Shown here: piece after piece, positions 2,987-24,648 of the stretch
How positions within the stretch are numbered: the first letter of the stretch is position 1
Layout: every line of letters begins with the position of its first letter
Virus record (IMG/VR): IMGVR_UViG_3300042013_000056
Location: 32,001-96,000 of that record
Length of the DNA: 64,000 nt
Source: a virus
Reading direction: 5' to 3' (one strand)
The notes under the pieces: generated by a model
Databases searched by the model: none
Told to the model about the DNA's origin: nothing
Seen by the model: only the letters and a program-made list of their open reading frames with translations
Made by a program: the position numbers and the translations under genes

Positions 2987-4579
2987 TTATGCAGCGAGCT
3001 TTGCACCCATGGTATCCATTGAAAAGTTCCCACCACACAGCGGGTCTGTCAATACCAGAGTTCTGACATCATTGTCAACCCGCCACATAACATTACCCGG
3101 ATGGATGTCGTATGTACCGTTAATTTCGCTATGGGTGTCGCGTACAACTTCAAACAGGTTAATTGCATCATCCCCATTACAGCCAAATTCACGTTTGATA
3201 GTAGAAAGTTCACTATTTCGAAACGCTTGCATTTTACCGGCGTTTCGTTCTCTAAACTCGGTTTGTTCAACATCTGTCAGCGGTTCGAGTCGTTCAATCT
3301 TGGCGCAGTATGTTGTGCCCATTCGGGCGATTTTATCAATCTTCGGGAAGTTCTTAGAACTGCCGTTTAACTTGACGTTAACCGCATATGCAAACCAACC
3401 ATCCAGAGAATCGCTGTTACAGTTGACCTTATAAACCCAACCATCAGGCCCAAGGTATGCATTAGACCAGCAACCCTCACCCAGATAGGAAAACCCCTGT
3501 TCTTTTAAACGCTCTGTACAGAGTTGCACCGCCGTATGCATACGCCCATTGCCATAATATCGAACTTCTGAAAAAAACCAAGCAATTCGCTTCGCAACAT
3601 CAACACCCGGTTTATTCAGGTCACGCAAAATATCATTTGCAAGTTGTTCATAAATCTTTTTGAACTTTGCGGTTTTAAGTTTCCGCTTTCTATCGGATTC
3701 TTTCCTATTTGCTACCTGTTCGGCTTCCAGTCTGGCGTCTCGCTCTAACTGTTCAATCCGCTTTGCTTCGCGTTGTTCAGTATTAAGATGCGGGTCCGGT
3801 TTAAACATGTTTTGCCACGCACCAAACAAACCATCATCATCAATACGGAAACCGTCCAGAATGCCATGCAAGCCACCGACATGCACCGGATGTATCGGTT
3901 CAGCCTCACGCCATCCAAGTGTCAGCGGCGGCAAGGCTTCACGTTTGCGCCCATGGATCAAACCCTTTAAAGCCGGGTGACCATAGCCGATACCGGGTTT
4001 AACGCCTTGTGCGTCCTTCCAGAAGGCTTTAAGGGCTGCTACCGGGTTATGTTTGGCAGTTCTCGGTTTGATATGGTGAATCGGCAGCAAATCATCAGCC
4101 AAGATACGAACGTTTTTAAAATCGCCCATCTTGAACGCAAGTTGTGCATGGTCACGATCTTTACGATCTTTAGGAACTTTGAGCTTGAGAAATGGGTTCG
4201 CTACTTCCGGGAATTTATCAACCATATCATCCCGACACACAACGCCTTCAAATTCACGCGGGCGAGCGTCAAAAAATCCAGCCGGGTCAATAACAATATT
4301 TCGCGCAGGGCGGCCAAAACGGCCAAACTGTTGGTTAAGTTGCCATTTGTCCCAGATGTCACGCATGGGGCCAGCAATACCGGGAACACCGAATTTATCA
4401 AATGGATTTTGGACAACTTCCATATCAAACACAATATTTTTGATATCATGTTTTGCAAAATCGCCAGCTTTCGGCCAATCGAACTTGATATTATCATTTG
4501 CATTCATTGCAGCACCTAACAAACGGATTTGTTCTAGGGTAACTTTCGGACCAGTCAACAACTTCATACCATTAAGCAT
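2987..4579 (-). CDS. T7 gp0.7-like Ser/Thr protein kinase with long N-terminal extension
   Basis: C-terminal LGEGCWSNAY, VYKV, DIHPGNVM, LVLTDPL; start moved to ATG 4579 (GAGG upstream, coupled to upstream stop). Confidence 0.78.
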   Translation of the reverse strand: MLNGMKLLTGPKVTLEQIRLLGAAMNANDNIKFDWPKAGDFAKHDIKNIVFDMEVVQNPFDKFGVPGIAGPMRDIWDKWQLNQQFGRFGRPARNIVIDPAGFFDARPREFEGVVCRDDMVDKFPEVANPFLKLKVPKDRKDRDHAQLAFKMGDFKNVRILADDLLPIHHIKPRTAKHNPVAALKAFWKDAQGVKPGIGYGHPALKGLIHGRKREALPPLTLGWREAEPIHPVHVGGLHGILDGFRIDDDGLFGAWQNMFKPDPHLNTEQREAKRIEQLERDARLEAEQVANRKESDRKRKLKTAKFKKIYEQLANDILRDLNKPGVDVAKRIAWFFSEVRYYGNGRMHTAVQLCTERLKEQGFSYLGEGCWSNAYLGPDGWVYKVNCNSDSLDGWFAYAVNVKLNGSSKNFPKIDKIARMGTTYCAKIERLEPLTDVEQTEFRERNAGKMQAFRNSELSTIKREFGCNGDDAINLFEVVRDTHSEINGTYDIHPGNVMWRVDNDVRTLVLTDPLCGGNFSMDTMGAKLAA

Positions 4580-5210
4580 ATTCGGCAACCTCAAAAACCG
4601 GAATTTGATTCGCCAAATAGGCGATAGGGTCATTTAAAACAAGTTGGCCATTCAACCGCATTACATTAGCTGTGTGAATGTCTAGAAACGTCTTGATAAT
4701 CTTTGCATCAATCCTATCGGGGTCAAAATTATCAAACATACCCCGGCTTACTTCGCATTCATTGGCGCAAACTTGCACGGCCAATAGTATCGCATCACGC
4801 AAATAACGATTAGTGCGGCTGGCCCCGTACAGGCTTTCAGGGCCGTCTATTGTCCATTGTTTTTGCAGTGGTTGGACTTCGACACAAAACCGCTGACCAT
4901 GTTGCACAAGCTCGCCAAACTGAGGCAAACAAGGGTTACCCGGTTGTTTGATACAAGCCAACATCCAGTTATAGAAACCATCATACACGCCGTTTAGGTT
5001 TGAATTGATTTTGTATAGCTTGCCGTGCAAACGCCAGACAGAACTATACATCCCAACCCCAACCAAAATATAGCCGCGTTGGTTCATTTCAATTTCAAAC
5101 AATTTCTGTTTGTTTCGCCATGTTCCACCGTCCGACCGAAAGCGGTCTATTTCACGTTGATGGCGAGCTTCGGCATGGGCGAACCGTTCAAGGATGTCAT
5201 TCTGTATCAT
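4572..5210 (-). CDS. T7 gp0.7-like Ser/Thr protein kinase
   Basis: VGVGMYSSVW, LYKI, NPCLP, DIHTANVM, LVLNDPI. Confidence 0.78.
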   Translation of the reverse strand: MIQNDILERFAHAEARHQREIDRFRSDGGTWRNKQKLFEIEMNQRGYILVGVGMYSSVWRLHGKLYKINSNLNGVYDGFYNWMLACIKQPGNPCLPQFGELVQHGQRFCVEVQPLQKQWTIDGPESLYGASRTNRYLRDAILLAVQVCANECEVSRGMFDNFDPDRIDAKIIKTFLDIHTANVMRLNGQLVLNDPIAYLANQIPVFEVAEYA

Positions 5211-5282
5211 GATTCAATTCTGTTCTAATCCAGTGGCGTCCATAATAGAACAGAAAGAAATAGAACACAACCCCCAGACAAG

Positions 5283-5306
5283 AAAAACCCCTTACGGGGT
5301 TTTTTT
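5283..5306. terminator. Bidirectional-type terminator
   Basis: AAAAACCCC-TTAC-GGGGTTTTTTT. Confidence 0.75.
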
Positions 5307-6104
5307 AACCTTTGCGGCCTTCGGCAGCTTAGGTTTGTTGATAATGGTTTGCTTCTGTCCATTCCAGCCTTCCCGCTGTTCTTTCACGGTGCCGGTAATG
5401 GTAAAGGTTTGGCCGATTTCAATTTCCTTGAAGCCTTGAGCAACCGAGTAGAACACAACCTCATTGCCTTCTGGCGTCTGTGCGATGTGCATCAGTGTAG
5501 GATATTGGGATTGGGTCCAAGATACGCGTTTGAGGGTCAACACCAGTTCAATGGCCTTGTCTACCTCACCAATGTAGCCGGGGAGTTCCACACCGGTTTC
5601 TTTGATGTAGTTGGTGGCGATGGTTACACATACCGCCATTTTGCCGTGGGCGTCTGTTTGCTGTGCAACCCAGAACAGATACCCAAGATCAACCACAGCG
5701 ATTTCAGCGGCGGTCATACCAGTGTATTTGCCAACAATGAACACACCGGCTTGAATCTGTTCAACCTTTTCAGCTTCCCATGCCGCTACGCGTTCAGCGT
5801 AGGCACGTTCTGAGGCTTCACGTTTGGCCGTGGCTTCGGCATCACGCACCCGGCGAATTTCGTTCAGCTCAAAATCCGCGTTGCCTTTGAATGGCAGCCC
5901 CATCAGAGCCGACATTTCAACCGCTTTAGATTCGGCGGTGTCCTTATCATTCGACAGGTTCTGAATGTAGTAATCATTCATTTCCTTGAATGATGTATCA
6001 CCCCAAACCACGGTGTCTAGGCACATTACGCGTAGGGTGTACATTGCAACTTTGTCACCGGTCGATATGAAAGTGTATTTTGCTTCGGAATTTGCTACTG
6101 CCAT
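5292..6104 (-). CDS. Putative nucleic-acid-binding protein with C-terminal OB-fold-like region
   Basis: GKYTG...D.GYL.W small domain, then YIGEV...GQTFTITGTVKEQRE.NGQKQT..K pattern; own promoter. Confidence 0.5.
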   Translation of the reverse strand: MAVANSEAKYTFISTGDKVAMYTLRVMCLDTVVWGDTSFKEMNDYYIQNLSNDKDTAESKAVEMSALMGLPFKGNADFELNEIRRVRDAEATAKREASERAYAERVAAWEAEKVEQIQAGVFIVGKYTGMTAAEIAVVDLGYLFWVAQQTDAHGKMAVCVTIATNYIKETGVELPGYIGEVDKAIELVLTLKRVSWTQSQYPTLMHIAQTPEGNEVVFYSVAQGFKEIEIGQTFTITGTVKEQREGWNGQKQTIINKPKLPKAAKVKKTP

Positions 6105-6259
6105 GATCGTAACTCCCGGTAAGGTCCGGGGTAAGTCCCGGTTTGCCTTGCTTGTGGTTTATTCTACACCATGGTTTGATACAGTCAAGGGTTTGATACA
6201 AATATTTTTGAAAATAAAAAAGCCCCACCGACCGGCAGGGCTTGAGGTGTTGCGAAACG

Positions 6260-6529
6260 TTAGAGCGTCACAGTCTTGACTGTGGTTCGCTTCACGGTGC
6301 TGTCATAGTTGTCACACAACCATTGATGCCCCTTTGCAAACGTTTCATTGAAGTGTTCCAGCGTTGCGGCAACCACACCAGCGGGCAACCGTTCGCCTTT
6401 GTTGCCATAAAATTCGGCTTCGTCCTGTTTCAGATAGATCGCGTCTGCAATCACCACACCATTCAAGGTGATATCCGCGCAAGCCGGAATGCCACCGGCA
6501 ACAACTGTATAGACTTGAGGCATGTTCAT
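6260..6529 (-). CDS. Hypothetical protein
   Basis: Co-oriented ORF, AAGGAA upstream. Confidence 0.7.
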   Translation of the reverse strand: MNMPQVYTVVAGGIPACADITLNGVVIADAIYLKQDEAEFYGNKGERLPAGVVAATLEHFNETFAKGHQWLCDNYDSTVKRTTVKTVTL

Positions 6530-6535
6530 AATTCC

Positions 6536-7057
6536 TTATGCGGCCTGTTTCTGTTCAACAGCTACAGCTTTGAAAATCAGTTCACGTCGGCCCGGTCGTT
6601 TAACTTCGTCAACCTTGTAACCCATACGGACCACAAGCCCCGTCGATTCAGCCCAGCGCATTGCGTTGGATACGTGCATAAGTTTCATTTTCAACTTTTT
6701 GCGGGCTTGCTTAACGGTGAATTCTTGTCCGTTCTGTGCGTTGATGAATGTTACCAGACTACGGCGGGTTTTGGTCTGGTTTGCCGAGATTGGGCGACCA
6801 CCCAGAGACTTAGTATTACCGGTTTGAGTCAGTTCAACCACTTTAACCGGGGTTTCTACTGCATCCAGAGCTTTCAGACCGGCTGTAAGTTCTTCTACCA
6901 TTTTCAGGCGGGTAGCTTCACTGTCGTCGTGAATGCGCAGGGTTTCGACTGTGAAACCATCAACACCCGGCACAATGTTGCACATTTCGGCCCAGTTGTC
7001 GCCGTGTAGCTTCTTGGCGGCACGTACAGCGGATGATTTAGCTTTGTAAGTAGTCAT
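6536..7057 (-). CDS. Putative winged-helix DNA-binding protein (paralog of 26439..26900)
   Basis: C-terminal FTVKQARKKL...VSNAM...GLVV...PGRRELIFK; own promoter at about 7093-7125. Confidence 0.55.
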   Translation of the reverse strand: MTTYKAKSSAVRAAKKLHGDNWAEMCNIVPGVDGFTVETLRIHDDSEATRLKMVEELTAGLKALDAVETPVKVVELTQTGNTKSLGGRPISANQTKTRRSLVTFINAQNGQEFTVKQARKKLKMKLMHVSNAMRWAESTGLVVRMGYKVDEVKRPGRRELIFKAVAVEQKQAA

Positions 7058-7151
7058 GTTCGAATTCCTTTATCAAATTGGCTTTCAGTGGTTTGTATCT
7101 TAATCGTTGTTTCTGGTTACGTCAAGGGTTTAATCAAACTATTTTCTATTT

Positions 7152-7550
7152 CTATCCAAGCCCCAAATAAACACCAGACAACACCAACACCCAACACCAG
7201 AAAATTACATAGTGTTTCCGCCGTCGCTTGCGGGTGTGTGGGTCTTCCTGTTCGATAATGTCACACCTATCAGGGTACAGCTCAAAGTCGGCTGATACAG
7301 GCTCACAGACCGGTTTAAACATCGATTCAGGGTCACGGGTCAGTGGGTGATATTCAATCGGCCAACCCATCGCCCGACAATATGACGCCCAAGCCTTGTT
7401 CCGTTTCAGAATTAGAGCGTGCTTTGTATGGGCATAGGTTACCAAATCAATAGCCTTTGCCGATAATGCTTGATCTAATTCAATTTCCTGTTTGTCTATA
7501 TTGTCCAACCGTTTCGCGGCTGGTATTGCCTGAAAACTAAGTTTATCCAT
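7152..7550 (-). CDS. Hypothetical protein with C-terminal membrane anchor
   Basis: RRRRK followed by a hydrophobic tail. Confidence 0.65.
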   Translation of the reverse strand: MDKLSFQAIPAAKRLDNIDKQEIELDQALSAKAIDLVTYAHTKHALILKRNKAWASYCRAMGWPIEYHPLTRDPESMFKPVCEPVSADFELYPDRCDIIEQEDPHTRKRRRKHYVIFWCWVLVLSGVYLGLG

Positions 7551-7650
7551 ACATCACCAGAACCCCCAGAAACGGGGCATACAATAGGATTACAGTAACG
7601 ATACCATAGGTTTTGATACAATGCAACATCAGTTGTTGATAATATTTCAT
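7543..7650 (-). CDS. 35-aa hydrophobic micro-protein
   Basis: AAGGAGG RBS, MKYYQQLMLHCIKTYGIVTVILLYAPFLGVLVMYG, array promoter at about 7680. Confidence 0.65.
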   Translation of the reverse strand: MKYYQQLMLHCIKTYGIVTVILLYAPFLGVLVMYG

Positions 7651-7734
7651 TGATCAGCCTCCTTTTCGTTGATGTGAGTATGATAGAACTATTTCAGGTG
7701 ACTGTCTAGTGGTTTGATACAAATATTTTTAGAT

Positions 7735-7850
7735 AAAAAGAACCCGCCAGATCGGGGAATCATGGCGGGTCAAATGAGGTGTTTCAGGGTTGGTTGTGAT
7801 TAGCCAGTCAACGAACTAACCACAGGGAGCGCACATAGTCCGTATGTGAC
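7735..7850 (-). ncRNA. Candidate small RNA of about 115 nt
   Basis: TTGACA(7884-7879)-N16-TATTAT promoter, two hairpins, intrinsic terminator, no ORF with an RBS. Confidence 0.55.
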
Positions 7851-7932
7851 TGCCGAATAATAAACGATTTACATAAAGTGTCAAATAAACCCGATAAAAG
7901 GCTTGACAGATTGACAGATTGGATCACATCTT

Positions 7933-7959
7933 AAATCAGTGGCAATAAGCCACTGATTT
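7933..7959. terminator. Perfect 11-bp-stem terminator
   Basis: AAATCAGTGGC-AATAA-GCCACTGATTT. Confidence 0.8.
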
Positions 7960-7967
7960 TATAAGAC

Positions 7968-8285
7968 TTATTGGATGCCACCATAACGCCAGCTTTCGAC
8001 TTTCTTGGCGTCCAGCAAGTCGGCAACCGTTCCGCGTGGCTTGTTCTTAGCTGGGGCTTTCCACCCGGCAGACTTCCACAAATTGCCTTCTTGATCCATG
8101 AACCCCCAGCAATAACGGCGGTCGCTTACAGTTCCGTCCTGATTCACGTCCGTGCTAACAAGGCGTGTCCAGACCTTACCCGGTTCAGCAGATAGAAGCT
8201 TTTGACCATGCGGGCCACCGGTAGCGTTCAGAGTGGTGGTTGCGAATTCCAGACCTTCGGCTAGTTGTTTGATCAATTCCGACAT
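7968..8285 (-). CDS. Hypothetical phage protein (WKAPAK-motif family)
   Basis: GFMD..GNLWKSAGWKAPAK..RG; start moved to ATG 8285 below promoter. Confidence 0.7.
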   Translation of the reverse strand: MSELIKQLAEGLEFATTTLNATGGPHGQKLLSAEPGKVWTRLVSTDVNQDGTVSDRRYCWGFMDQEGNLWKSAGWKAPAKNKPRGTVADLLDAKKVESWRYGGIQ

Positions 8286-8361
8286 TTTGTAACCCTCAAT
8301 TCGTTTGGTGTGTTTGTATTCTATCAAACCCCCAGCCGATTGCAAGGGGTTTGATTCAATT

Positions 8362-8736
8362 TTACATATCTTTTTTGCGCTTCACGTCTTGAGCATATCC
8401 ACCGATGTGCAATGCTTCCCGTACTTGCCAGTTACCCAACGCGTAACCACTTTCAGCGGTCATGTAACCGTTTTGAATCAACCACTCGCCCCCGGTAACC
8501 AAATAATGGTTATCATGACCCGGACGCATATCGGCAAAGCCACCCAATTCTTGCCATTCGCCACCAACCAACGCCGACACATAAATTTTGTGGTAGCAGT
8601 TAGTCATAGAATCATACCACCGAACACCTTTGATCGATATTTCTTGAAAGTTGTCGCATTTCGCGGTCAATGCGGCGGTGACCATTTTAGGGCCGTCTTG
8701 AGTTTGAATGCGGTAGTCGATGGTTTTCATGATCAT
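8362..8736 (-). CDS. Hypothetical early protein
   Basis: Own array promoter and AGGAA. Confidence 0.72.
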   Translation of the reverse strand: MIMKTIDYRIQTQDGPKMVTAALTAKCDNFQEISIKGVRWYDSMTNCYHKIYVSALVGGEWQELGGFADMRPGHDNHYLVTGGEWLIQNGYMTAESGYALGNWQVREALHIGGYAQDVKRKKDM

Positions 8737-8807
8737 GTTCCTGTGGTTGGGTGTGGTTGTATTGTAGCGGGGTTGTCGGTTTGATACAACCCCTATTTCG
8801 ATTCTTT

Positions 8808-9251
8808 TTAGTAGCCCCAGCTTTCACGGGCGTAGCGGTCAAGGTCGCCCATCAATTCAGCTTTGGACTTGTACAGGGGGCCAACAGTGCGCGGCATGCC
8901 TTGCGGGTTCAATACGCTGTCATGAATGTCTACCACACGCCACAGGCCGTGGCCTTGATGCCAGTAGCCTAAACCAGCATAACGGGTTTTCATGATTTTA
9001 AACGTACTGGTGATATTTGCAGATGCTGGCACGGTTTCGGCCTTTTCAATTTCATACGTGAACAGGGTTTGCCCGTGGCTACCGCGAAACTCGGCACCGT
9101 CCTTTACATCAAACCAGCTATTAAAGTCGCTGACTTGCAACACGCCGTCATGAACACGAACATCATAATAACGCCCGTCGATATAGATACCGTTCCCGAT
9201 ATTCAAATGGGCGCGGATTTTGCGAGCTGCTGCGTTAGGTGTGAGTATCAT
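8808..9251 (-). CDS. Hypothetical early protein
   Basis: Own array promoter and AAGGAA. Confidence 0.72.
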   Translation of the reverse strand: MILTPNAAARKIRAHLNIGNGIYIDGRYYDVRVHDGVLQVSDFNSWFDVKDGAEFRGSHGQTLFTYEIEKAETVPASANITSTFKIMKTRYAGLGYWHQGHGLWRVVDIHDSVLNPQGMPRTVGPLYKSKAELMGDLDRYARESWGY

Positions 9252-9331
9252 TTTCTAATTCCTTATGTCGGTTGGTGTAGGGTTATTCTATCAAACCACC
9301 CGAAAGAGTCAAGCGGTTTGATGTAATTATT

Positions 9332-9538
9332 TTACTGTTCTTTGATACTGGTAGTGTTGCCGTTCAACATGGCTATAACAAACACCGTGTTTAGATGTTT
9401 GATGATATACCTACGGTGTGCGCCTTTCTCACTTTCCCAGTCCTGCAAGTCCAACACCACACCATAGCGGCAAAGTTCTTTTTTGACGGCTTCCAGTTCG
9501 TTAGCCTGTATCGCTATCAGGATTTGCAATAGTGTCAT
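9332..9538 (-). CDS. Hypothetical early protein
   Basis: Start moved to ATG 9538 after GGGAG; own promoter. Confidence 0.7.
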   Translation of the reverse strand: MTLLQILIAIQANELEAVKKELCRYGVVLDLQDWESEKGAHRRYIIKHLNTVFVIAMLNGNTTSIKEQ

Positions 9539-9609
9539 GTCGATAACTCCCGGTTGGTGTATGGGAATGATAGAACCCCCTGACAATGATGTCAAGGGGT
9601 TTGATAGAA

Positions 9610-9915
9610 TTATTTTGCGTTCAATTTGTCCAGCCGTTGCTGTTGACGGAACGCCGACAATTCTTTTTTCCAACGCTTGCAAAACCATTTGTTATATGTC
9701 TGCAATGCCTTGAACGCAATTTCAAAGTTTGCCGAATCACGCCGCCATTCCGGGCTTGCCTTGACGCTATCCGGGGTTAACCCCATTGGCCCTACCGGGT
9801 ACTTGTTCAAATCATTAGACGCAGCATCACAGGCCGCGTTTAGTTGATCTTGCTTAGCCTTTGCCTGTTCAAAAGACATAAGCGAATTACCGATTTCTTC
9901 TAGGGACATGAACAT
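9610..9915 (-). CDS. Hypothetical early protein (MGLTPD.VK.SPEW motif)
   Basis: Start moved to ATG 9915 after GGGAG; own promoter. Confidence 0.7.
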   Translation of the reverse strand: MFMSLEEIGNSLMSFEQAKAKQDQLNAACDAASNDLNKYPVGPMGLTPDSVKASPEWRRDSANFEIAFKALQTYNKWFCKRWKKELSAFRQQQRLDKLNAK

Positions 9916-9990
9916 TTTGATAACTCCCGGTTGGTGTGGTTGTATTCTATCAAACCCCACGCCGATTGCAAGGGGTTTGATAAATTCTTT

Positions 9991-10296
9991 TTACTTGACC
10001 AGACCCGCCGCCATGCAAGCCTTTGCCCAGTAGCGTTGGGAACGTGCATCCTTGCCGGGGTGAATCGCTTTAATGGTGTGGCTACCGTCCGTGTGTAGCT
10101 CGCCTTCGGTAGACAGCCAATCCGGTGTGCCGGGGTAGCAATTCGACTGTGTGAAGCCTTCGCGGTCGATATAGTCCACCAGTTCGCGGAAACCATAATC
10201 AACATCTTCAAATTCAAAACCGCGTTCATCAGTTTCGCCCGCTTCTATTGCTTCTTGCGACCATTCCTCATACGTTACGGAAATTTTGATACCCAT
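9991..10296 (-). CDS. Hypothetical acidic early protein
   Basis: Own promoter, AGGGG RBS. Confidence 0.72.
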   Translation of the reverse strand: MGIKISVTYEEWSQEAIEAGETDERGFEFEDVDYGFRELVDYIDREGFTQSNCYPGTPDWLSTEGELHTDGSHTIKAIHPGKDARSQRYWAKACMAAGLVK

Positions 10297-10376
10297 GATA
10301 CAAACCCCTGTTTTCGTTGGTGTGCCGGTATTCTATCAAACCGCCTGATAGTGTCAAGCGGTTTGATAAATTCTTT

Positions 10377-10703
10377 TTAGTCCGTCCGCTTGCCGATTGT
10401 TCGGGCGACGATAGCCACAAATTCCTCATACTCGGCCTTTGCAGCCTCATCACACGCCAGCCATTCACCGAAGTTCGGGGATTGGATCATTACGATATCT
10501 TCGCGGCTGTCAACCCCTTTCGGAATCAAATGCTGTTCATAGCTCGCCACACTGCCGACCGAATGAATCCGAAAGATAAACGCCCGGTAACCGAATATAA
10601 TCGATTGGTCAAGCGTATGCATGGTGAACTTGTATTTAAATTTCTTGCCGCCGTTCTTGACCAGTGCGGCAACAAACGCTTTTGTCATTGGATGTTGTTT
10701 CAT
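10377..10703 (-). CDS. Hypothetical early protein
   Basis: Start moved to ATG 10703; own promoter. Confidence 0.7.
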   Translation of the reverse strand: MKQHPMTKAFVAALVKNGGKKFKYKFTMHTLDQSIIFGYRAFIFRIHSVGSVASYEQHLIPKGVDSREDIVMIQSPNFGEWLACDEAAKAEYEEFVAIVARTIGKRTD

Positions 10704-10791
10704 GTTGTAGCCCCTTTCCGGTTGGTGTGTGGTCATTATGGGGCTATATCAAACCCCTGTCAACAGGTTTGATACAAATATTTTGAGCAAC

Positions 10792-10813
10792 AAAAAAGCC
10801 CCGAAGGGCTTTT
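10792..10813 (-). terminator. Intrinsic terminator (UUCG loop)
   Basis: Minus strand AGCCC-UUCG-GGGCU-UUUUU. Confidence 0.82.
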
Positions 10814-11015
10814 AGTTGATACCTTGCAACTCCCGCCAGATGTCGCCCAACCGCTGTTCAACATCTTGAATCGATATGTAACCCTGTAGCTCGCTTTCCC
10901 CTGTAAATTTAGGGCTTGCCAGATACGCCCGGAACGCTTGCAGGCTGTCATCTGCTAGGTTAATGCGGCTGGTAAGGTTGTCTATCTCGACTTGCTTGGC
11001 GTTGACTGTAGGCAT
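10812..11015 (-). CDS. Hypothetical early protein
   Basis: Own promoter, AGGGG RBS. Confidence 0.68.
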   Translation of the reverse strand: MPTVNAKQVEIDNLTSRINLADDSLQAFRAYLASPKFTGESELQGYISIQDVEQRLGDIWRELQGIN

Positions 11016-11094
11016 TTTCAAACCCCTGTTTTGGTTGGTGTGGGGTCATTATGATGCAACATCGAACGCACGTCAAGCGGTTTGATGCAATTAA

Positions 11095-11310
11095 TTAAGC
11101 AGCCATAGCCGCCGCTTCGGCTGCAAAACGCTTTAGACGGGCTTTGCAGTTACGCCACGACCTACGGTCACTAGGCGTTGAACTGGTAAACACTGGTTTA
11201 GTTCCCGGCATGAAAAATTTTAGGTGTTTGCCGTTTGTTTGTTCTATACCCCAACCCAAACCCTTTGCATAGTCCACTAGGTCGCGCATATCACCATTTT
11301 TAATGTTCAT
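11095..11310 (-). CDS. HicA-like (dsRBD-fold) protein, orphan
   Basis: LVDYAKGLGWGIEQTNGKHLKF...STPSD pattern with the conserved His. Confidence 0.65.
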   Translation of the reverse strand: MNIKNGDMRDLVDYAKGLGWGIEQTNGKHLKFFMPGTKPVFTSSTPSDRRSWRNCKARLKRFAAEAAAMAA

Positions 11311-11373
11311 ATCAAACCCTTATGTTTTATTGATAATAGATTGTTGCATTGAAACAAAATAAAGTCAAGCGGT

Positions 11374-11718
11374 TCAAGCGGTTTTGATTTCGTGTATCAG
11401 TTCCAGAACTTGCGGGCATTCTGACAGTTCATCACCTAACCGCAAGTGTTTAAAGTCCTTTGATGCAACCCGGTACAGGTGTCGGAATAATCCGCTGTTG
11501 ATGTAGTCCGGGTGTGAGTATGCAGCAACCACCCGACCCAATTTGCTGCTATGGCTAGCCACAAGCAACACAGCGACCGAACGCCCGTGAACCTGATAGA
11601 CATATCGGTTTGAGCCGTTGAACGTCTTAAACAGCGTTACAGACGGCCCAACCAAATAGCCGGTTTCCTTATCGGTGATGGTTGGGCATTGGTTACAGGG
11701 TGCAAGTAGACTATCCAT
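11374..11718 (-). CDS. Hypothetical protein, weak GNAT-like C-terminal pattern
   Basis: VVAAYSHPDYINSGLFRHLY. Confidence 0.4.
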   Translation of the reverse strand: MDSLLAPCNQCPTITDKETGYLVGPSVTLFKTFNGSNRYVYQVHGRSVAVLLVASHSSKLGRVVAAYSHPDYINSGLFRHLYRVASKDFKHLRLGDELSECPQVLELIHEIKTA

Positions 11719-11734
11719 AACCAACCCCTATCGA

Positions 11735-12148
11735 TTAGACCGATTTGATAATTTCTGCGTTCTTTTCATACCATGCCAACATTTTTTGCAGGGCTTCGGC
11801 TGGTGTCTTGCCTTTGATCTTGCGGAATTTCAAACCAGCGTTACGCAAGTGATGCGACCATGATAACAATTCAATGTCAAATGAATTTGCGACGTTGTGT
11901 TGACTGTTACCATTCAAGTGCATCATGAAACGCATTTGACCGGTTGCATTCAACAGGATACCGCTTGCGCATTCGGATTTGTCCGCGACGTTGTAAAAAT
12001 CAATTACCACATTGTCACCCAAACTTTTGTAAGGGCGGGCTTTTGCCAGAAAGGTCGGGAACAGTTGTTTTATGCCAGTGTTAAAGGCTTCGCAACCTTC
12101 GGCGGCGTTGGCTACTGCATCTTGAATCAATTGGATTTGAGTTTTCAT
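11735..12148 (-). CDS. Hypothetical early protein
   Basis: Own palindromic promoter. Confidence 0.72.
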   Translation of the reverse strand: MKTQIQLIQDAVANAAEGCEAFNTGIKQLFPTFLAKARPYKSLGDNVVIDFYNVADKSECASGILLNATGQMRFMMHLNGNSQHNVANSFDIELLSWSHHLRNAGLKFRKIKGKTPAEALQKMLAWYEKNAEIIKSV

Positions 12149-12225
12149 GTTCCGGCTTCCTGTGGTTGGTATGGGTTAGTGTAGCGGGGTTGTAGGTTTG
12201 ATACAACCCCCTTTAGCAATTTATT

Positions 12226-12546
12226 TTAGTACCGGGTTACTTTGTCCGGGTTGTCTTTAATCCATTGTTGCAACCGGGCCTGACCTTCGGCTTCTGATTC
12301 TTTAATCAGTTCCGACACCTTATGCGGGAACCAATACGCTTCGCAATCCATATAGATAAACCGGTCATACTTCGACAAATCGTTGGTTGTGTCAAACCCG
12401 ATAATTTCACGACCGGGGAAAATAACCCCGTAATCGTTGATGAATGTAACGATGTCACCGACCTTTAGGTCACACCCTACCGGGGCTTCTTGATCCAGTT
12501 TGGCGGCGAATGCTTCGATGTCGCCGTGGCCTGTACGATTTTTCAT
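12226..12546 (-). CDS. Hypothetical early protein (SH3/KOW-like start)
   Basis: LKVGDIVTFINDYG; own promoter. Confidence 0.7.
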   Translation of the reverse strand: MKNRTGHGDIEAFAAKLDQEAPVGCDLKVGDIVTFINDYGVIFPGREIIGFDTTNDLSKYDRFIYMDCEAYWFPHKVSELIKESEAEGQARLQQWIKDNPDKVTRY

Positions 12547-12616
12547 GATTTCGGTTCCTGTGGTTGATGTTGGGTAGTGTAGCGGGGTTGTAGGTTTGAT
12601 ACAACCCCTATTTTGA

Positions 12617-12991
12617 TTATTCGGTGAAATAATCCCGGCTCAAACTGTGCGACCCGAATTCAACGTGTGGAACCTTCAAATCAATGTCATAATCGAACAA
12701 CCCGACACCGTGGCCCATTGCTTGCATGGCTGCATAATGGCCCCATTCTTGCGCCTTGAGTTCGTTGGTAGCGTTGTTGCTTTCGTACAAGCTTGCAACC
12801 GGCATGCCGTGCATCAGTTCGAGCTGAAAAGTCAGGGTATCAGCCGCATGCAACGCCGCCGAATCGATCACAGCGGGCAATTGATCCATGATTTCGCCGT
12901 GCAATGATTGGCCGCAATCGTCTGCCATGTCAGCATAAGCCGAACCGAAAAACGCTAGTGCCATGCCTTTCTTGATTTGTTCTTGAGACAT
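12617..12991 (-). CDS. Hypothetical acidic early protein
   Basis: Start moved to ATG 12991 after AGGAG; own promoter. Confidence 0.72.
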   Translation of the reverse strand: MSQEQIKKGMALAFFGSAYADMADDCGQSLHGEIMDQLPAVIDSAALHAADTLTFQLELMHGMPVASLYESNNATNELKAQEWGHYAAMQAMGHGVGLFDYDIDLKVPHVEFGSHSLSRDYFTE

Positions 12992-13107
12992 TTTTGTAAC
13001 TCCTGATTTGGTTGGTGTGTAGAGATTATGGGCTTGATTGATATGGCTGTCAACAGGTTTGATACAAATATTTTTAGATATGAAAAAGCCCCGGTTAAGG
13101 GGCTTCT

Positions 13108-13305
13108 TTACTTGACAAGCTCTAAATCCGCTTGGTTCCAATACTTGCAGCCGCGCAAATCTTGATCTAACCAAACTTCGCCGTCTTTACCGTAACAGGC
13201 CCGGATATTCGCCTGATGGTTGTCTTCCCGACCATCCGGGCAACCGTCCCAACTTGCCAACACATCCGGCTTTAGTTGTACGGTGTCGCCTTTCTTGAGT
13301 GACAT
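13108..13305 (-). CDS. Small hypothetical protein (SH3-like)
   Basis: LKKGDTVQL. Confidence 0.65.
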   Translation of the reverse strand: MSLKKGDTVQLKPDVLASWDGCPDGREDNHQANIRACYGKDGEVWLDQDLRGCKYWNQADLELVK

Positions 13306-13315
13306 GATTAACCCC

Positions 13316-13567
13316 TTAAACGTCGTTGGTAACCCAATTATCTTTCATGTGGAAAGATTCGCCGTTATCGAAACGCACGCTCAATTCATAACCCGGTTTG
13401 AACGTGTGAGTTACTTCGCCTTTCATGCCAACCGAAAGCTTTTTCAGGAAGCTATCACTTGGATAGTTAGGGGTCACACACGACCGGTTTGAGCTGTGCA
13501 TTGTATCGATGTTGGTTTGGGTTAGAACTACACGATCACCAACTTCGCGATGTACTGGCATGACCAT
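13316..13567 (-). CDS. Small hypothetical protein (SH3-like)
   Basis: EVGDRVVL...GMKGEVT; own promoter. Confidence 0.65.
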   Translation of the reverse strand: MVMPVHREVGDRVVLTQTNIDTMHSSNRSCVTPNYPSDSFLKKLSVGMKGEVTHTFKPGYELSVRFDNGESFHMKDNWVTNDV

Positions 13568-13659
13568 TTTTGTATCTCCGGTTTAGAAGGCGTTTTGCCT
13601 TTCGATGTGGTTATTCTAACAGGTTGATTGAATGCGTCAAGCGGTTTGATAGAAATATT

Positions 13660-13959
13660 TCAAAATTTTTGAATCGGGCTTACCAGTTCGTCAACTAACC
13701 GGCGATCATTGGGTAACAGGTCGCCGGGGATAGCCCATTGGCCGTTGATGCGTTCCAGCTTGATAACCCGACCGGATGGCAGTCGAAACGTCGTCAAGGC
13801 GTCTGTAGGCTGTTCAGGACGGCATTTCGCACCGTCGTACAGTTCATCTGCCAGATACTGCGCACGTTTGACACATTGGGATTCTGTAAGGTGTAGGGCT
13901 TGTACTCTTTCCATCATACCGAAAGGCGTATCGGTCAAGGCAAACAGTGTATACAACAT
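13660..13959 (-). CDS. Hypothetical protein
   Basis: Coupled (TAATG) to the upstream ORF. Confidence 0.68.
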   Translation of the reverse strand: MLYTLFALTDTPFGMMERVQALHLTESQCVKRAQYLADELYDGAKCRPEQPTDALTTFRLPSGRVIKLERINGQWAIPGDLLPNDRRLVDELVSPIQKF

Positions 13960-14204
13960 TACAAACCCCCCAAATCAGCATTGATACCGAAAATATCAAC
14001 GTCTTTAACATCAGTAAAATCAAGGGCCATGCATTTAGCCATGTAATCATCAGGCCCGCGGCGACCAATATTAAAAACATTACCCATATAATAAGCGATA
14101 ATTTCGTCCTCAGTTCCATTGATTTCGGTGTTAGTGGTAAATTCTTTACCATCTTCACCTTTCCACGTTAATTTTATGGTACGGCGGCGGGCTACTTGTG
14201 ACAT
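13959..14204 (-). CDS. Hypothetical early protein
   Basis: Own promoter, AAGGAA. Confidence 0.7.
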   Translation of the reverse strand: MSQVARRRTIKLTWKGEDGKEFTTNTEINGTEDEIIAYYMGNVFNIGRRGPDDYMAKCMALDFTDVKDVDIFGINADLGGL

Positions 14205-14324
14205 GTTGGCGGTTCCTTGTGTTGTTTGGCTTTCTTGTGGTTATTCTAGCAGGTGGTTTGATATAGTCAAGGGTTTGATACAAATATTTTTAGGCGACAA
14301 AAAGCCCCATAACGGGGCTTCTTA

Positions 14325-14522
14325 TCAGTACATTGCTTGCTGGGTCAATTCGTTGACCACGGTTTTTGCAGTGTGTTCACTCAGACCGGCACGTTGGCAC
14401 ACATCATTGGCGTCTAGAACCATCCAGCGCCCCGACATGACGTTAAATTCAGCCCGGTAGGCCATGGGCTGGCTTGTGGTTGGTGTGGCTTGTACGGCGT
14501 TTAGCGGGATTACGTGGAACAT
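14325..14522 (-). CDS. Hypothetical protein
   Basis: GGGG RBS before ATG 14522; terminator downstream. Confidence 0.6.
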   Translation of the reverse strand: MFHVIPLNAVQATPTTSQPMAYRAEFNVMSGRWMVLDANDVCQRAGLSEHTAKTVVNELTQQAMY

Positions 14523-14588
14523 TGCATTACCCCCAATTAACACAAAAAGCGGCCTATGCTAGCATATCACAGGCCGTTGTCAAATCCT

Positions 14589-14894
14589 TTACAGATGGCA
14601 GTCCAACCCGGTCGCGGCTGTAAATTCAGATTGCAACATGTCGGCATAGTTGCCTTCTGACTTGTGAACCAATTTCAGGTTAACGCCGTGAAAGTTGTAA
14701 AATTCAATGTCGTACAGGTCAGCCGGTGTCAAGATAATTTTCACCAAATTGATTTTATCTTTCGCAAAATTGGACGGTAGTTTGAACTGTAGGAAATTTT
14801 CACCACCTACAAACTGTTTCGCGCCAGTCATTGCGATAAACTTGTTACCGCCGATTTGTTCTAGGATGGTATTTGCTACGGTCAGATTCGACAT
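14589..14894 (-). CDS. Hypothetical phage protein (ILEQIGG..F.AMTGAK motif)
   Basis: Own promoter; motif recurrent in phage hypotheticals as recalled. Confidence 0.72.
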   Translation of the reverse strand: MSNLTVANTILEQIGGNKFIAMTGAKQFVGGENFLQFKLPSNFAKDKINLVKIILTPADLYDIEFYNFHGVNLKLVHKSEGNYADMLQSEFTAATGLDCHL

Positions 14895-14968
14895 TTTGAA
14901 AACCCTTGTTTCGGTTGGTGTGGTTGCAGTTTAACACCTTTGTATCAAACTGCAACCCCTTTTCGAAA

Positions 14969-15430
14969 TTAAATATTCAGTTCCAACCCTTTGCGAATCA
15001 ATTCAATGGTAAGGGTTACCGCTTTTTCTTGTGCTTCTTTAAAACCCTTCGCGGTAAACTTTTGTTCTTTTACATCCTCACCATATTGACCACCTTTAAC
15101 GCACAATGTCCATGATTCACTTGACTTATAACGGGAAATTGCCAAATGGTTGTTATATGGGCTGGTGTCCTCATGCAAACCATTGATCAGGTAAACGATT
15201 TGTTTGGACTCACAAAACAAATCTTTCATCCAGTCAGCGGCTATCAAAAATTCGCATGCTTGTACAGCATCAAAAATTTTATACGAATAATCTGCATCAT
15301 CTGTAGATGTTGCATTTTCCACTGCATCATCTATTTCATCATCAAGTTTGGACAGGATAGCCAACGCCAACTGATTATCATCAGTTAGTGCCTTGTGTTC
15401 CAGTTGGGACAAACTTAGTTGATTAATCAT
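14969..15430 (-). CDS. Hypothetical acidic early protein
   Basis: Own palindromic promoter, AAGGAA. Confidence 0.72.
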   Translation of the reverse strand: MINQLSLSQLEHKALTDDNQLALAILSKLDDEIDDAVENATSTDDADYSYKIFDAVQACEFLIAADWMKDLFCESKQIVYLINGLHEDTSPYNNHLAISRYKSSESWTLCVKGGQYGEDVKEQKFTAKGFKEAQEKAVTLTIELIRKGLELNI

Positions 15431-15502
15431 GATTCAAATTCCTTTCAGTGGGTGTATGAGCATTGTATAGGGGTTGTATCAAACCTACAACCCCTATCGA
15501 AA

Positions 15503-15754
15503 TTAAATTTTACCGAACAGCCACAGGCTTTCCGGGGCTTGCGACGGTGTGAAGCGATACAGCCTCACATAACCATCAGCCATAACCACTATAAACACCA
15601 CGCTAGCCACGCGGGAATCTTCCAGAACGCGACGGGCTGCCATTCGGGCTTCGGCATACGTGGTTGTATATTCACCGTTGCCGACCTTTGCCAAATGGTC
15701 TAGTTCGAACAGTTCACGCAGTGGGGAAAGCTTGCTAGGAAGTTGGAAAGCCAT
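15503..15754 (-). CDS. Hypothetical early protein
   Basis: Start moved to ATG 15754; own promoter. Confidence 0.7.
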   Translation of the reverse strand: MAFQLPSKLSPLRELFELDHLAKVGNGEYTTTYAEARMAARRVLEDSRVASVVFIVVMADGYVRLYRFTPSQAPESLWLFGKI

Positions 15755-15831
15755 TTTAAAATTCCTTGTTTCGGTTGGTGTATGAGCATTGTATAGGGGT
15801 TGTATCAAACATACAACCCCTATTTTTAAAA

Positions 15832-16035
15832 TTATGCATTCAACCGGTCGGCATAGCCGCTTGCATAATAATATGCGCCTAGGTTGCTTGGTTGAACACC
15901 AATCGGATTATCCAAATTGAACTTAGCCACACACGCAGCATGGCTCATACCGTTTAGGTCGGCCTGTGCAGCTTCCCAACCTTTCATGTAGTCCGGTTGA
16001 TGTTGGGTGTGGGTAACTGTGCGGGGTGTGTTCAT
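15832..16035 (-). CDS. Hypothetical early protein
   Basis: Own promoter, AAGGAA. Confidence 0.7.
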   Translation of the reverse strand: MNTPRTVTHTQHQPDYMKGWEAAQADLNGMSHAACVAKFNLDNPIGVQPSNLGAYYYASGYADRLNA

Positions 16036-16112
16036 TTCAAAATTCCTTGTTTCGGTTGGTGTATGAGCATTGTATAGGGGTTGTATGTTTGATACAACCC
16101 CCCAATCGAAAA

Positions 16113-16349
16113 TTATTTTACTTTCAATTTCCCGGTCAATCCCATGGATTTTAGGTGGTTGATAATCTGTTCCACTACATTAGATTTCGTTTCACCGTAG
16201 AAAACAACCGGCTCACCAATTAGTTCAGCAACGTTTGTTTTAATTACGATCAAATCGCATTCACCTTCAAACCACACACGACCGGTCTGGATGTCGTTTT
16301 GTTCGAAAACATAAGCAGTAGCAGCCACAGCTAGTTTGGGGAAATTCAT
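16113..16349 (-). CDS. Hypothetical early protein
   Basis: Own promoter, GAGGA. Confidence 0.7.
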   Translation of the reverse strand: MNFPKLAVAATAYVFEQNDIQTGRVWFEGECDLIVIKTNVAELIGEPVVFYGETKSNVVEQIINHLKSMGLTGKLKVK

Positions 16350-16423
16350 TTTTGTATCCTCTTTCTGGTTGGTGTGACTGCATTATAAAGGGGTTGTAGG
16401 TTTGATACAACCCCTATTTTGAT

Positions 16424-16732
16424 TTAAATTTTGTCGAAAATTGCGCAGTTCGAGTAATTACCCAATACACGGGTTTTGTACTGTTCACCGTCAATCAACA
16501 CAATTTCACCATGTTGCAATGGGGTTTCAGAGTTCAGGCGGTCACGTTCGGCAACGTCGGCGGCTGTGTATTTGTCTTTCAGAACAGAACCGGTAGACAA
16601 GGCCCAATAGATGCCATCGCCAACTTTGTCATAGTCTTGTTTAAGGTGCGCAGTCATTACTCGACGGCCTGCATTCACGTTAAAGCTGTTGACTTGATCG
16701 AAAGAATCTGTAGCTAGGATCAGGGTTTTCAT
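16424..16732 (-). CDS. Hypothetical early protein
   Basis: Own promoter, AAGGAA. Confidence 0.72.
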   Translation of the reverse strand: MKTLILATDSFDQVNSFNVNAGRRVMTAHLKQDYDKVGDGIYWALSTGSVLKDKYTAADVAERDRLNSETPLQHGEIVLIDGEQYKTRVLGNYSNCAIFDKI

Positions 16733-16744
16733 TTTTCTATTCCT

Positions 16745-16811
16745 TGTTTCGGTTGGTGTGTAGAGATTATGGGACTATATCAAACCCCTGTCAACAGGTT
16801 TGATACAAATA
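16745..16811. repeat. 67-bp promoter/leader unit duplicated exactly at 22828..22894
   Basis: Identical TGTTTCGGTTGGTGTGTAGAGATTATGGGACTATATCAAACCCCTGTCAACAGGTTTGATACAAATA. Confidence 0.9.
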
Positions 16812-17015
16812 AATGAAAATAATTTCAGCCAGACATGGCATGGTGTATGCAGTGACAAAAATCATGCCAAGTCAAATCGCAGGCTCCTTCGGTGATTTCC
16901 TCCGAGCCGCCCCGGTAACACCAGTATAATTCTATCAAACCAACAATGCAACCTTTGATACAAATATTTTTAGGCAATAAAAAACCCCAGCGGTCCGGGG
17001 CTTTGTGTGGGGGTA

Positions 17016-17198
17016 TCACACCCCCAAACGATACCGATAGACGTAATAAAGAATTTGACCAGCAAACACAATACAGCATACCAACACAGCCGCAACAAAC
17101 CAGACATTAGCCGTCGTCTGGTTACGGCTGTAACGGTTGATAGCGAACCACAGACAGATTAGCAGTAGAACGCCAACCGTAACACCCAGAGTAATCAT
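17016..17198 (-). CDS. Small two-TM membrane protein
   Basis: Two hydrophobic stretches. Confidence 0.68.
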   Translation of the reverse strand: MITLGVTVGVLLLICLWFAINRYSRNQTTANVWFVAAVLVCCIVFAGQILYYVYRYRLGV

Positions 17199-17257
17199 AT
17201 GGCACCTGTTGATTAGTTAATAACCTATAGAACCATACAATCAATGGTGTGTCAAGG

Positions 17258-17464
17258 TTAAAGTTTATGCAGCTCTGTGCATTCGTATACGTGAACTGTG
17301 CAGCCGTTCGGCAACTGGTAATAGTTCATATTCCAGCGGATTGCATCAAACTCCTTTCCGTCATGTTCCAACAGATACGAGCGTTCATCATTTGAATAAT
17401 GACCATAGCGAAAGCCCGCTGTGGTCACCGTGTTGGATTTCAATTTGATTCGTACACGTTCCAC
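17258..17464 (-). CDS. Hypothetical protein
   Basis: Co-oriented ORF, GAGGG upstream. Confidence 0.62.
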   Translation of the reverse strand: MERVRIKLKSNTVTTAGFRYGHYSNDERSYLLEHDGKEFDAIRWNMNYYQLPNGCTVHVYECTELHKL

Positions 17465-17665
17465 AATACACCCTCAAACAAAACTGTAAATGATTGCGAC
17501 AACACCACACACCAGAATAGCCAGAAACATCCATGTAATAACCGCCGCACCGTCGCGGTCCAATTCTTTTTCCACTTGAAATTCGTTCAATTCGTTCATG
17601 TTGTCACCTTCTTGGTATGATTTGATATAGGGTCATTCTACAGGCTTTTGGGCATAATGCAAGGG

Positions 17666-17887
17666 TTAGATTTGGTCCGGGGTCATATGGCATTCATTCA
17701 AATGTTTAGCCATTTCACCGTGTGTATGACCATGGCGGGCCAGCATCCCATCCGCCAACGATACCAAATGAAGATTAGATACCCCGGTGTTTGCCGGGTC
17801 ATACCCGATAATGTATTGTTCAGAGCCATTTTCAGACCATACACGCCGACCGGGTTTGATATCTGTAGCTTCCCATTCAAATTTCAT
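17666..17887 (-). CDS. Hypothetical protein
   Basis: Start moved to ATG 17887 (MKFEW). Confidence 0.62.
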   Translation of the reverse strand: MKFEWEATDIKPGRRVWSENGSEQYIIGYDPANTGVSNLHLVSLADGMLARHGHTHGEMAKHLNECHMTPDQI

Positions 17888-18116
17888 TTTGAGCCTCGAC
17901 AGGTTTGATAGAGTTGATTGGTTTGATTGGGTTGCCCCAGTCGTCGTGCGTTTCACTGCCCCGATATGGGCTAGCCTTGATTGTGATAACCCGGCGAATT
18001 ACAACACCAGTACCACAACACAGGGCCACTACTGTTAAATGCCGGTCGGATTGTTCCACGTTCCATTCGGCGGCGGTATTCAACCGCAACTCACCTTTAC
18101 AGTTTGGACATTCCAT
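17877..18116 (-). CDS. Small Zn-finger protein
   Basis: CPNC ... CC. Confidence 0.6.
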   Translation of the reverse strand: MECPNCKGELRLNTAAEWNVEQSDRHLTVVALCCGTGVVIRRVITIKASPYRGSETHDDWGNPIKPINSIKPVEAQNEI

Positions 18117-18508
18117 TATTCATTACCCCAGACAGAACGCAAGCAACTAGCCAGCGACGGGAACTTATCACCGTCAAACTTTCCCTTTGTACCCTTGGGA
18201 CGGTAAAAGAATTGATTGTCAATCTGTTTCAGAACGTGGCCGATGGTCTTACCATCCAGCGTAATTGGCTCAACTACCACAAGCTTTGCATATGCCTTGA
18301 TATCAGCTTTCAGCTTACCCATGGTTGGGGCTTTCTTGCGGTCCCCATTGAACGCTACAGCCTGATATTCACGACGGGCGCGCAGGTATTGCACCTTGAA
18401 CACAACACCGCCACAAACGACTTCCACGACGTTCAGGCCGGTGCTAATGATACCCACAGTCAGTTCTGATAGTTCGAGTGGAGTATCCTGCTTTTCGTAA
18501 ATGATCAT
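18116..18508 (-). CDS. Hypothetical basic protein
   Basis: Coupled starts and stops on both sides. Confidence 0.7.
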   Translation of the reverse strand: MIIYEKQDTPLELSELTVGIISTGLNVVEVVCGGVVFKVQYLRARREYQAVAFNGDRKKAPTMGKLKADIKAYAKLVVVEPITLDGKTIGHVLKQIDNQFFYRPKGTKGKFDGDKFPSLASCLRSVWGNE

Positions 18509-18684
18509 TACACAGCCCCTGTATAGGTTGTTAGTTCAGATTCGCGGAATGTACCAGCATCACGGCCAGAATTTCCAAAGGTGCAAGAATAGAATCCAAA
18601 GTCATTAACGCTTTTGATGGTCATCCAAAAAACGCCACCCTTGGCTTGAACCGGGTCACCTTTGGAAAATTTGTTCGCTATCAT
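18508..18684 (-). CDS. DUF2158/YodC-like small SH3-barrel protein (58 aa)
   Basis: Hand-translated FSKGDPVQAKGGVFWMTI...C.F...GTFRESEL; own promoter. Confidence 0.55.
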   Translation of the reverse strand: MIANKFSKGDPVQAKGGVFWMTIKSVNDFGFYSCTFGNSGRDAGTFRESELTTYTGAV

Positions 18685-18759
18685 GATTCAGTTCCTTGTT
18701 TCGGTTGGTGTATGGTCATTCTAGCACGCACACACCAACCGTCAAGGGGTTTGATAGAA

Positions 18760-18939
18760 TTATTTTAGGTGGCGCTCCCAAATGTGAATAATGATACAGC
18801 CGTCCCGCATCTGCATCTTGTACCCGGCCCATTTATCCGACATGAAATTACCGGAAAAATCGTACACAACACCAACCCATTTAGACAGTCTCGCTAAATT
18901 CTTTTGTGCCTTACCAGCCGGGAGCGTGATGGTTCGCAT
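18760..18939 (-). CDS. Small hypothetical protein (59 aa)
   Basis: Hand-translated MRTITLPAGK...; AGGTGA upstream. Confidence 0.55.
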   Translation of the reverse strand: MRTITLPAGKAQKNLARLSKWVGVVYDFSGNFMSDKWAGYKMQMRDGCIIIHIWERHLK

Positions 18940-18950
18940 GGTGTCACCTG

Positions 18951-19214: not shown

Positions 19215-19226
19215 AGCGGTAACTCC

Positions 19227-19527: not shown

Positions 19528-19535
19528 CGTTTGGG

Positions 19536-21292: not shown

Positions 21293-21295
21293 GAT

Positions 21296-24646: not shown

Positions 24647-24648
24647 GC

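Follow-up and report, generated by a model that had tools for sequence, protein, structure and literature searches.

A conserved, structured, ORF-less unit predicted to specify an early RNA upstream of a membrane-peptide gene in a T4-like phage

Comparison of one stretch of phage DNA with its relatives supports a selected, structured transcription unit that holds no open reading frame (ORF) and whose transcript is predicted from a promoter and a terminator. Judged by sequence, the unit is a previously undescribed phage RNA family. Our preferred reading, to which we give somewhat less than even credence, is that it produces an early RNA acting as the terminated leader of a small peptide gene, with the GGA loop of the 5′ hairpin as a ligand site.

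The stretch analyzed (hereafter, the window; 64,000 nucleotides) corresponds to bases 32001–96000 of a 182,859-bp IMG/VR virus record. The record encodes a Gp23-type major capsid protein (386 bits), and the phage is therefore T4-like. Small minus-strand genes form an array at window coordinates 5,000–25,000, and the ORF-less unit lies inside it. Most array genes carry their own copy of a stereotyped cassette, which runs from a terminator through an A/T-rich ATCAAAC box, a −35 and a −10 element, a fixed, CA-rich leader, and a Shine–Dalgarno (SD) sequence to the ATG. The seven minus-strand gaps that measure 130 nt or more and lie below window coordinate 30000 yielded no second ORF-less unit of this type. 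The features of the unit and of the two genes that follow it are as follows:

7911..7929, minus strand: upstream box of 19 nt, about 27–45 nt upstream of the P1 −35 element; identical in the homologous contig L006
7857..7884, minus strand: promoter P1, with TTGACA (7884–7879), a 16-nt spacer, and TATTAT (7862–7857); 11/12 match to sigma-70
7733..7851, minus strand: predicted non-coding transcript of about 115–119 nt, its start placed from the −10 element and its end from the U-run
7832..7848, minus strand: hairpin 1, near the 5′ end, with a 6-bp stem and a 5-nt apical loop containing ACGGA
7831–7824, minus strand: linker between hairpins 1 and 2
7796..7823, minus strand: hairpin 2, with a 10-bp stem, three G·U pairs, and an 8-nt loop
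7771..7795, minus strand: C-rich, G-poor tract of 25 nt, unpaired in all folds; includes an invariant CCCU
7733..7770, minus strand: intrinsic terminator, with a hairpin at 7770–7742 (8-bp GC-rich stem, 13-nt loop) and a U-run to 7733
7680..7729, minus strand: ATCAAAC-type A/T-rich box and promoter P2 (TAGACA, 17 nt, TATCAT at 7708–7680), of the array's standard cassette type
7543..7650, minus strand: gene for a hydrophobic peptide of 35 aa, which follows the RNA in every variant; overlaps the start of the next gene
7152..7550, minus strand: gene for a 132-aa protein whose C-terminal tail is hydrophobic; ATG overlapping the 35-aa ORF at its end

The promoter, hairpins, G·U-containing stem, and terminator described in the first-pass annotation are all present at these positions on the minus strand. 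P1 is more than a chance match: the first 16 kb of the window holds five sites matching at 11 or more of 12 positions, all on the minus strand, which is the gene strand, compared with a mean of 0.39 and a maximum of 2 in 100 shuffles (about 13-fold over expectation). The terminator hairpin has a predicted energy of −17.1 kcal/mol (RNAfold) and is unlisted by our terminator scan because its 13-nt loop exceeds the limit of 8 nt that the scan allows. The predicted transcript folds with z-scores of −4.1 and −3.1 in two computations. As the complementary strand folds about equally well (z = −3.1), folding energy cannot assign the strand; the assignment rests instead on P1, the U-run, and the G·U pairs of hairpin 2, which exist on the transcribed strand only, as had been claimed. 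The further claim that the unit lacks a credible ORF also stands, as none is conserved across the RNA. The sole ORF of at least 25 aa across the unit (39 aa, 7808–7927) starts upstream of P1 and is kept in L006 over its first five codons only. A coding role was rejected for this promoter-spanning frame, for tiny ORFs beginning at the AUG of hairpin 1, and for ORFs across the terminator in the relatives L002 and L003, none of them being conserved. Since P2 sits behind the terminator, the RNA can stand alone in the window.

Nucleotide searches (megablast, blastn) found no homologue of the RNA in GenBank phages, and three exact DNA patterns had no match in IMG/VR. A pattern scan of bacterial and archaeal genomes returned 12 matches, all by chance, with the 5′ hairpin arm in none. 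Rfam gave no match at the gathering threshold over the whole window and, at E-values up to 10, only terminator-type chance matches far below threshold. With no nucleotide homologue in GenBank phages or IMG/VR, we therefore used the neighboring 132-aa protein as a handle, and this search led to L006, a 182.6-kb phage contig from a compost metagenome. There, the same unit precedes the same gene pair as in the window, and covariance model R1, built from the window sequence alone, finds it at L006:2206–2315 (56.9 bits, E ~5e-16).

Comparison of the window with L006 gives 76% identity for the RNA, 69–81% for the ORFs, and agreement at 5–6 of 6 positions for the promoter hexamers, against only 31–44% identity across three adjacent spacers. 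These spacer values are near random, indicating that neutral positions have diverged and that the RNA has not. In P1 of L006, the −35 element is identical, the −10 element agrees at 5/6 positions, and the spacing is the same, with a spacer only 44% identical; for P2, the box and −35 element are 93% identical and the spacer 41%. The helices changed in ways that largely preserve pairing. Hairpin 2 differs by one G–C pair replaced by A–U and one G·U pair replaced by A–U, with no pair broken. The outermost (closing) pair of the terminator is A–U in the window and G–C in L006, and its innermost pair is unpaired in L006, for a total over the helices of two pairs changed on both sides and one G·U changed to A–U. 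Hairpin 1 is shortened to 4 bp in L006 from 6 in the window and keeps its ACGGA loop.

Two elements upstream of P1 deserve separate mention. The 19-nt box is 19/19 identical between the window and L006, compared with 31% identity over the adjoining 16 nt, and could serve as a site for a regulator. The window has a single copy, the more diverged relatives described below have none, and an exact-pattern search of IMG/VR gave no match. A partial duplicate of the box extends to 7901, and its opposite strand reads as TTGACA-like hexamers; in L006, the box supplies both the loop and the 3′ arm of a hairpin with 11 bp. Farther upstream, at 7933–7959 (minus strand), an 11-bp hairpin directly follows the stop codon of the 125-aa gene. 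Compared with the gene strand, the plus strand gives this hairpin the better T-run, and a weak or bidirectional terminator is one possibility.

The two closest genomes, G001 and G002, in which the neighbor gene is 92–95% identical, lack the unit at the window's position. Neither a pattern allowing two mismatches nor model R1 found anything in them or in the Pseudomonas phages Astolliot and Milchi. A tblastn search with the small proteins of the window showed that G001 and G002 carry the 35-aa and 132-aa genes at other positions, as diverged copies, and directly 5′ of the small gene lies a TTGACA promoter followed by about 90 ORF-less nt. These comprise, in order, a 5′ hairpin with a GGA loop, a second hairpin, a CCCU tract, and a strong terminator. 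Two IMG/VR contigs (L025, the same as L026) supply one more variant. Covariance model R2, built from L025 alone, finds L002 at 63.7 bits and L003 at 31 bits, and L002, L003, and L025 are treated here as the diverged group.

In an alignment of this group, 93.7% of cells are paired, compared with 80.8% in shuffles (0/500), and eight pairs are changed on both sides (1/500 shuffles), six of them in the helix of hairpin 2; these counts come from three sequences in an alignment fitted to the model structure, which favors structure. Slid controls of the same alignment were 31–46% paired. The −10 element of the group is TAGGGT or TAAGGT (3/6 matches, below the threshold of the promoter scan), and the −35 hexamer marks the joint to the upstream gene. 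P2 is absent, and about 20–40 nt separate the U-run from the ATG. The terminator loop measures 6 nt, compared with 13–14 nt in the window and L006, and the terminator hairpin is predicted at −16 to −23 kcal/mol, compared with about −17 kcal/mol in the latter two.

Several local observations concern the same loci. At L003:5158–5173, a perfect 16-bp palindrome of the array's ATCAAA box lies between the leader terminator and the SD sequence of the peptide gene; it could be an operator bound by the protein presumed to recognize that box. At L002:5456–5698, an 80-codon open frame runs from the AUG of hairpin 1 through the terminator and in frame into the 41-aa gene; it is probably due to chance, because L003 and L025 have stops in frame. 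In the two closest genomes, the gene that lies upstream of the unit in the window is followed at L002:3357–3443 and L003:~3342–3430 by a 29-aa Cys-rich ORF that the window lacks, with a weak DUF6011 match and a start that overlaps the stop of that gene.

Taken over the five distinct sequences compared (window, L006, L002, L003, and L025), a common three-hairpin design is evident, with z-scores from −3.1 to −4.9. GGA occurs in the apical loop of the 5′ hairpin in 5/5 variants, though the stem differs in sequence and length, and the fuller ANGGA in 4/5. CCCU, a few bases upstream of the terminator, is likewise present in all five and is the only invariant unpaired motif. The loop of hairpin 2 is similar in four variants and has lost its sequence in L002. 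Models R1 and R2 each miss the other group at a significant E-value, so that the proposed link between the two groups rests only on synteny, on architecture, on a weak global similarity (z 3.8–4.7), and on short strings common to both, namely CCCU, the first bases of the terminator, and the loop of hairpin 2 with a 7-mer on its 3′ side. Within each group, the covariance models bear out the structural conservation on which the first-pass annotation had staked its proposal: R1 recovers L006, R2 recovers L002 and L003, and the helices are kept through compensatory changes in the homologues.

This conservation bears directly on whether the unit is functional. The first-pass annotation had offered, as its alternative, a cassette that has lost its gene, and one might also imagine a feature acting at the DNA level, such as a palindromic operator or a recombination joint. 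The unit does lie in a cassette array that is shuffled at promoter and terminator joints (PMC2839356, PMC4122927), and the two arms of hairpin 2 make up an inverted repeat, to which a dimer could bind. A relic would not be expected to stay 76% identical beside spacers at 31–44%, to show pair-preserving changes in all helices, or to keep its design in five variants at three different genomic contexts, and neither a relic nor a DNA feature fits the restriction of G·U pairs to the transcribed strand. We consider both very unlikely.

The constant neighbor of the unit is the gene that follows it. A gene for a 35–41-aa membrane peptide lies directly downstream in 5/5 variants, its products in L006, L002, L003, and L025 being 57–77% identical to that of the window. 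The upstream neighbors vary: the window has the 125-aa gene and L025 a 270-aa gene, L006 has a different one, and G001 and G002 have yet another. Conservation of the 35-aa and 132-aa gene pair reaches out to Otagovirus phages. The diverged group has the two genes apart from each other, with a separate promoter for the second. The 132-aa protein has nine clusters of homologues, with at least five lineages besides those compared here. It has no Pfam match and matches a single PHROG, a family without an assigned function; searches of Pfam, PHROGs, and a protein atlas assigned no function to the neighboring proteins.

A small RNA gene that always adjoins a small hydrophobic peptide gene recalls type I toxin–antitoxin loci, in which the RNA would be the antitoxin-like partner of the 35-aa peptide. 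In the present case, RNA and gene share a strand, one behind the other, and have no antisense overlap, whereas type I pairs are antisense or divergent. No conserved complementarity between the two was found, duplex predictions being uninformative, and the peptide gene also occurs on its own, as the Otagovirus phages Astolliot and Milchi keep the gene pair without the RNA. A type I-like pair is on this evidence quite improbable. In Astolliot and Milchi, the slot of the RNA is occupied by a 68-aa, weakly HicA-toxin-like gene (L008:1108–1311 and L009; Pfam 19.8 bits, below cut-off), which is unannotated in Astolliot.

The arrangement of promoter, terminator, and peptide gene points to a different relationship. 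In L002, L003, and L025, no promoter-like site was found between the terminator and the ATG of the peptide gene, so the gene appears reachable only by read-through and the RNA would be its leader. In the window and L006, P2 intervenes. We propose that host RNA polymerase would start at P1, transcribe about 115 nt, and mostly halt at the intrinsic terminator, the transcript folding into two hairpins and a C-rich tail. The terminator would pass only a fraction of the transcripts from a strong early promoter to the peptide, which is possibly harmful in excess, and the terminated product would accumulate as a small RNA. For the three relatives, read-through would be the only visible route to the peptide gene; in the window and L006, a standard cassette promoter would have been added behind the terminator, leaving the RNA largely free-standing and, to judge from its conservation, still under selection. 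From the elements, conservation, covariation, and synteny that we observe, we infer transcription, partial read-through, and a ligand.

A terminated leader is the best-supported account of the fixed linkage to the peptide gene and of the arrangement without P2. It does not explain the conservation of the hairpins and the GGA loop or the persistence of the unit beside P2, and the RNA therefore probably binds something. Because the peptide gene of the window has its own conserved P2, a leader role is not required there. The Otagovirus phages, in which the gene pair occurs with no such RNA, also count against this reading. No alternative pairing with the 5′ arm of the terminator that could serve as an antiterminator appeared in minimum free energy or centroid folds or by inspection; regulated attenuation is thus unsupported, and read-through would be passive.

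A related idea is that the RNA works on the polymerase as lambda nut or HK022 put do, its two promoter-proximal hairpins, with or without a phage protein, rendering the polymerase resistant to the terminator behind them and so timing the downstream genes. A pair of conserved hairpins set immediately between a promoter and a strong terminator would suit such a signal, as would the need to pass that terminator to reach the next gene in three genomes and the similarity of the hairpin 2 loop in 4/5 variants. The RNA has no Rfam or sequence likeness to known nut or put RNAs, L002 lacks the loop sequence, and no antiterminator protein was identified, leaving arrangement as the sole basis of what we regard as an improbable role. 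Likenesses to CRISPR repeats, the tRNA T-loop or anticodon loop, and lambda boxA/boxB were sought by eye and dropped, there being no likeness or only a partial one that is not conserved.

The main rival to the terminated leader is a trans-acting base-pairing RNA, whose C-rich tract or hairpin loop would pair with the SD regions of host or phage mRNAs, probably with Hfq on the terminator and U-tail. Under this reading, the linkage to the peptide gene would reflect modular co-inheritance only. The unit is free-standing in the window and L006, where P1 and P2 are both conserved, and it has the intrinsic terminator and U-tail expected of an Hfq-type RNA, a G-poor unpaired tract, and a CCCU that is invariant in 5/5 variants. 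However, the anti-SD seeds that the first-pass annotation placed in the linker and the single-stranded tract are conserved in neither location, even in L006, and the invariant unpaired sequence amounts to the 4 nt of CCCU. Target prediction in the phage genome yielded no target, the longest perfect complementarity being 12 nt, which is at chance level, and in three relatives the RNA physically leads the next gene. We accordingly consider a trans-acting role unlikely, while giving it a real chance. Two narrower variants were discarded. Anti-SD pairing with the adjacent gene gave matches of 6–7 bp in 3/4 genomes and was dropped as non-specific, and mimicry of the array's standard mRNA leader was rejected because the likeness of the window's unpaired tract to that leader is lost in L006.

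For the terminated leader, the GGA/ANGGA loop of the 5′ hairpin would be the most likely ligand site, and a CsrA/RsmA-type protein the best candidate ligand. The suggestion that this loop contacts RsmA was borne out in part: the apical loop carries GGA or ANGGA throughout at the frequencies given above, making it a predicted CsrA/RsmA site, and a single GGA in the window RNA excludes a Csr/Rsm sponge. CsrA dimers usually need two sites. A further GGA is found in the SD region of the downstream gene in 4/5 variants, and a hairpin-to-SD distance of more than 100 nt is long for bridging by one CsrA dimer. ANGGA in apical loops is the CsrA recognition motif, and CsrA-type proteins can also stabilize RNAs or alter termination (PMC5207318). 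The present 5′ hairpin resembles CsrA/RsmA leader hairpins (PMC5207318) in its ANGGA apical loop and differs in that the window RNA has one predicted site, lying more than 100 nt from the SD sequence. With the sponges CsrB, RsmY, and RsmZ, the RNA shares a GGA in a hairpin loop and a Rho-independent terminator, whereas the sponges carry many GGA motifs rather than one, and no Rfam match was obtained up to E 10. We put forward only as a long shot that the ANGGA hairpin of a dedicated early RNA recruits a host CsrA/RsmA-type regulator, either coupling peptide synthesis to the state of the host or diverting the regulator.

By analogy, the closest known counterparts of the unit would be candidate terminated leader RNAs of virulent Pseudomonas phages (PMC10914365, PMC8545117) and the PeSL cassettes of T4-type phages (PMC2839356, PMC4122927). 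In virulent Pseudomonas phages, an ONT-cappable-seq survey reported candidate non-coding RNAs derived from 5′ untranslated regions (5′UTRs) by premature termination (PMC10914365), and non-coding RNAs of phiKZ are known from Grad-seq (PMC8545117). The 5′UTR-derived RNAs likewise combine a promoter and an intrinsic terminator upstream of a same-strand gene; their short product is abundant, and they are conserved among relatives upstream of the equivalent gene, as here. The present unit differs in belonging to a T4-like phage, in having no sequence relation to them, and in the P2 that stands behind the terminator in the window; they were mapped experimentally, whereas the present RNA is predicted from sequence.

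In PeSL cassettes, the second counterpart, the terminator and P2 junction (7770–7680) finds a match as a PeSL-type composite, and the module is placed differently in related genomes, with joints at the −35 element in the diverged group. PeSLs flank protein-coding ORFs, whereas the interval from P1 to the terminator holds none, and P1 lacks the ATCAAAC box of the array. Window positions 5292–9688 and L002, L003, L006, and L025 contain the same small genes in differing order, with joints at promoters; these differences in gene order fit PeSL-type cassette shuffling.

Non-coding RNAs of virulent phages have been little studied, and most candidates come from transcript maps without comparative support. 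Here the reverse holds, as a prediction made from sequence draws support from five variants that show conservation, compensatory changes, and a fixed synteny. This comparative support is unusually good for a phage RNA, and the result is a well-defined family to test. If the proposed recruitment of a CsrA/RsmA-type regulator is true, the phage would encode a Csr-type ligand distinct from both sponges and ordinary mRNA leaders; the synthesis of a membrane peptide, with a role for example in exclusion or lysis timing, would then be tied to host physiology, or the regulator would be diverted locally during takeover. More broadly, the unit suggests that RNA-only modules can be among the cargo of shuffled early-gene cassettes in T4-like phages.
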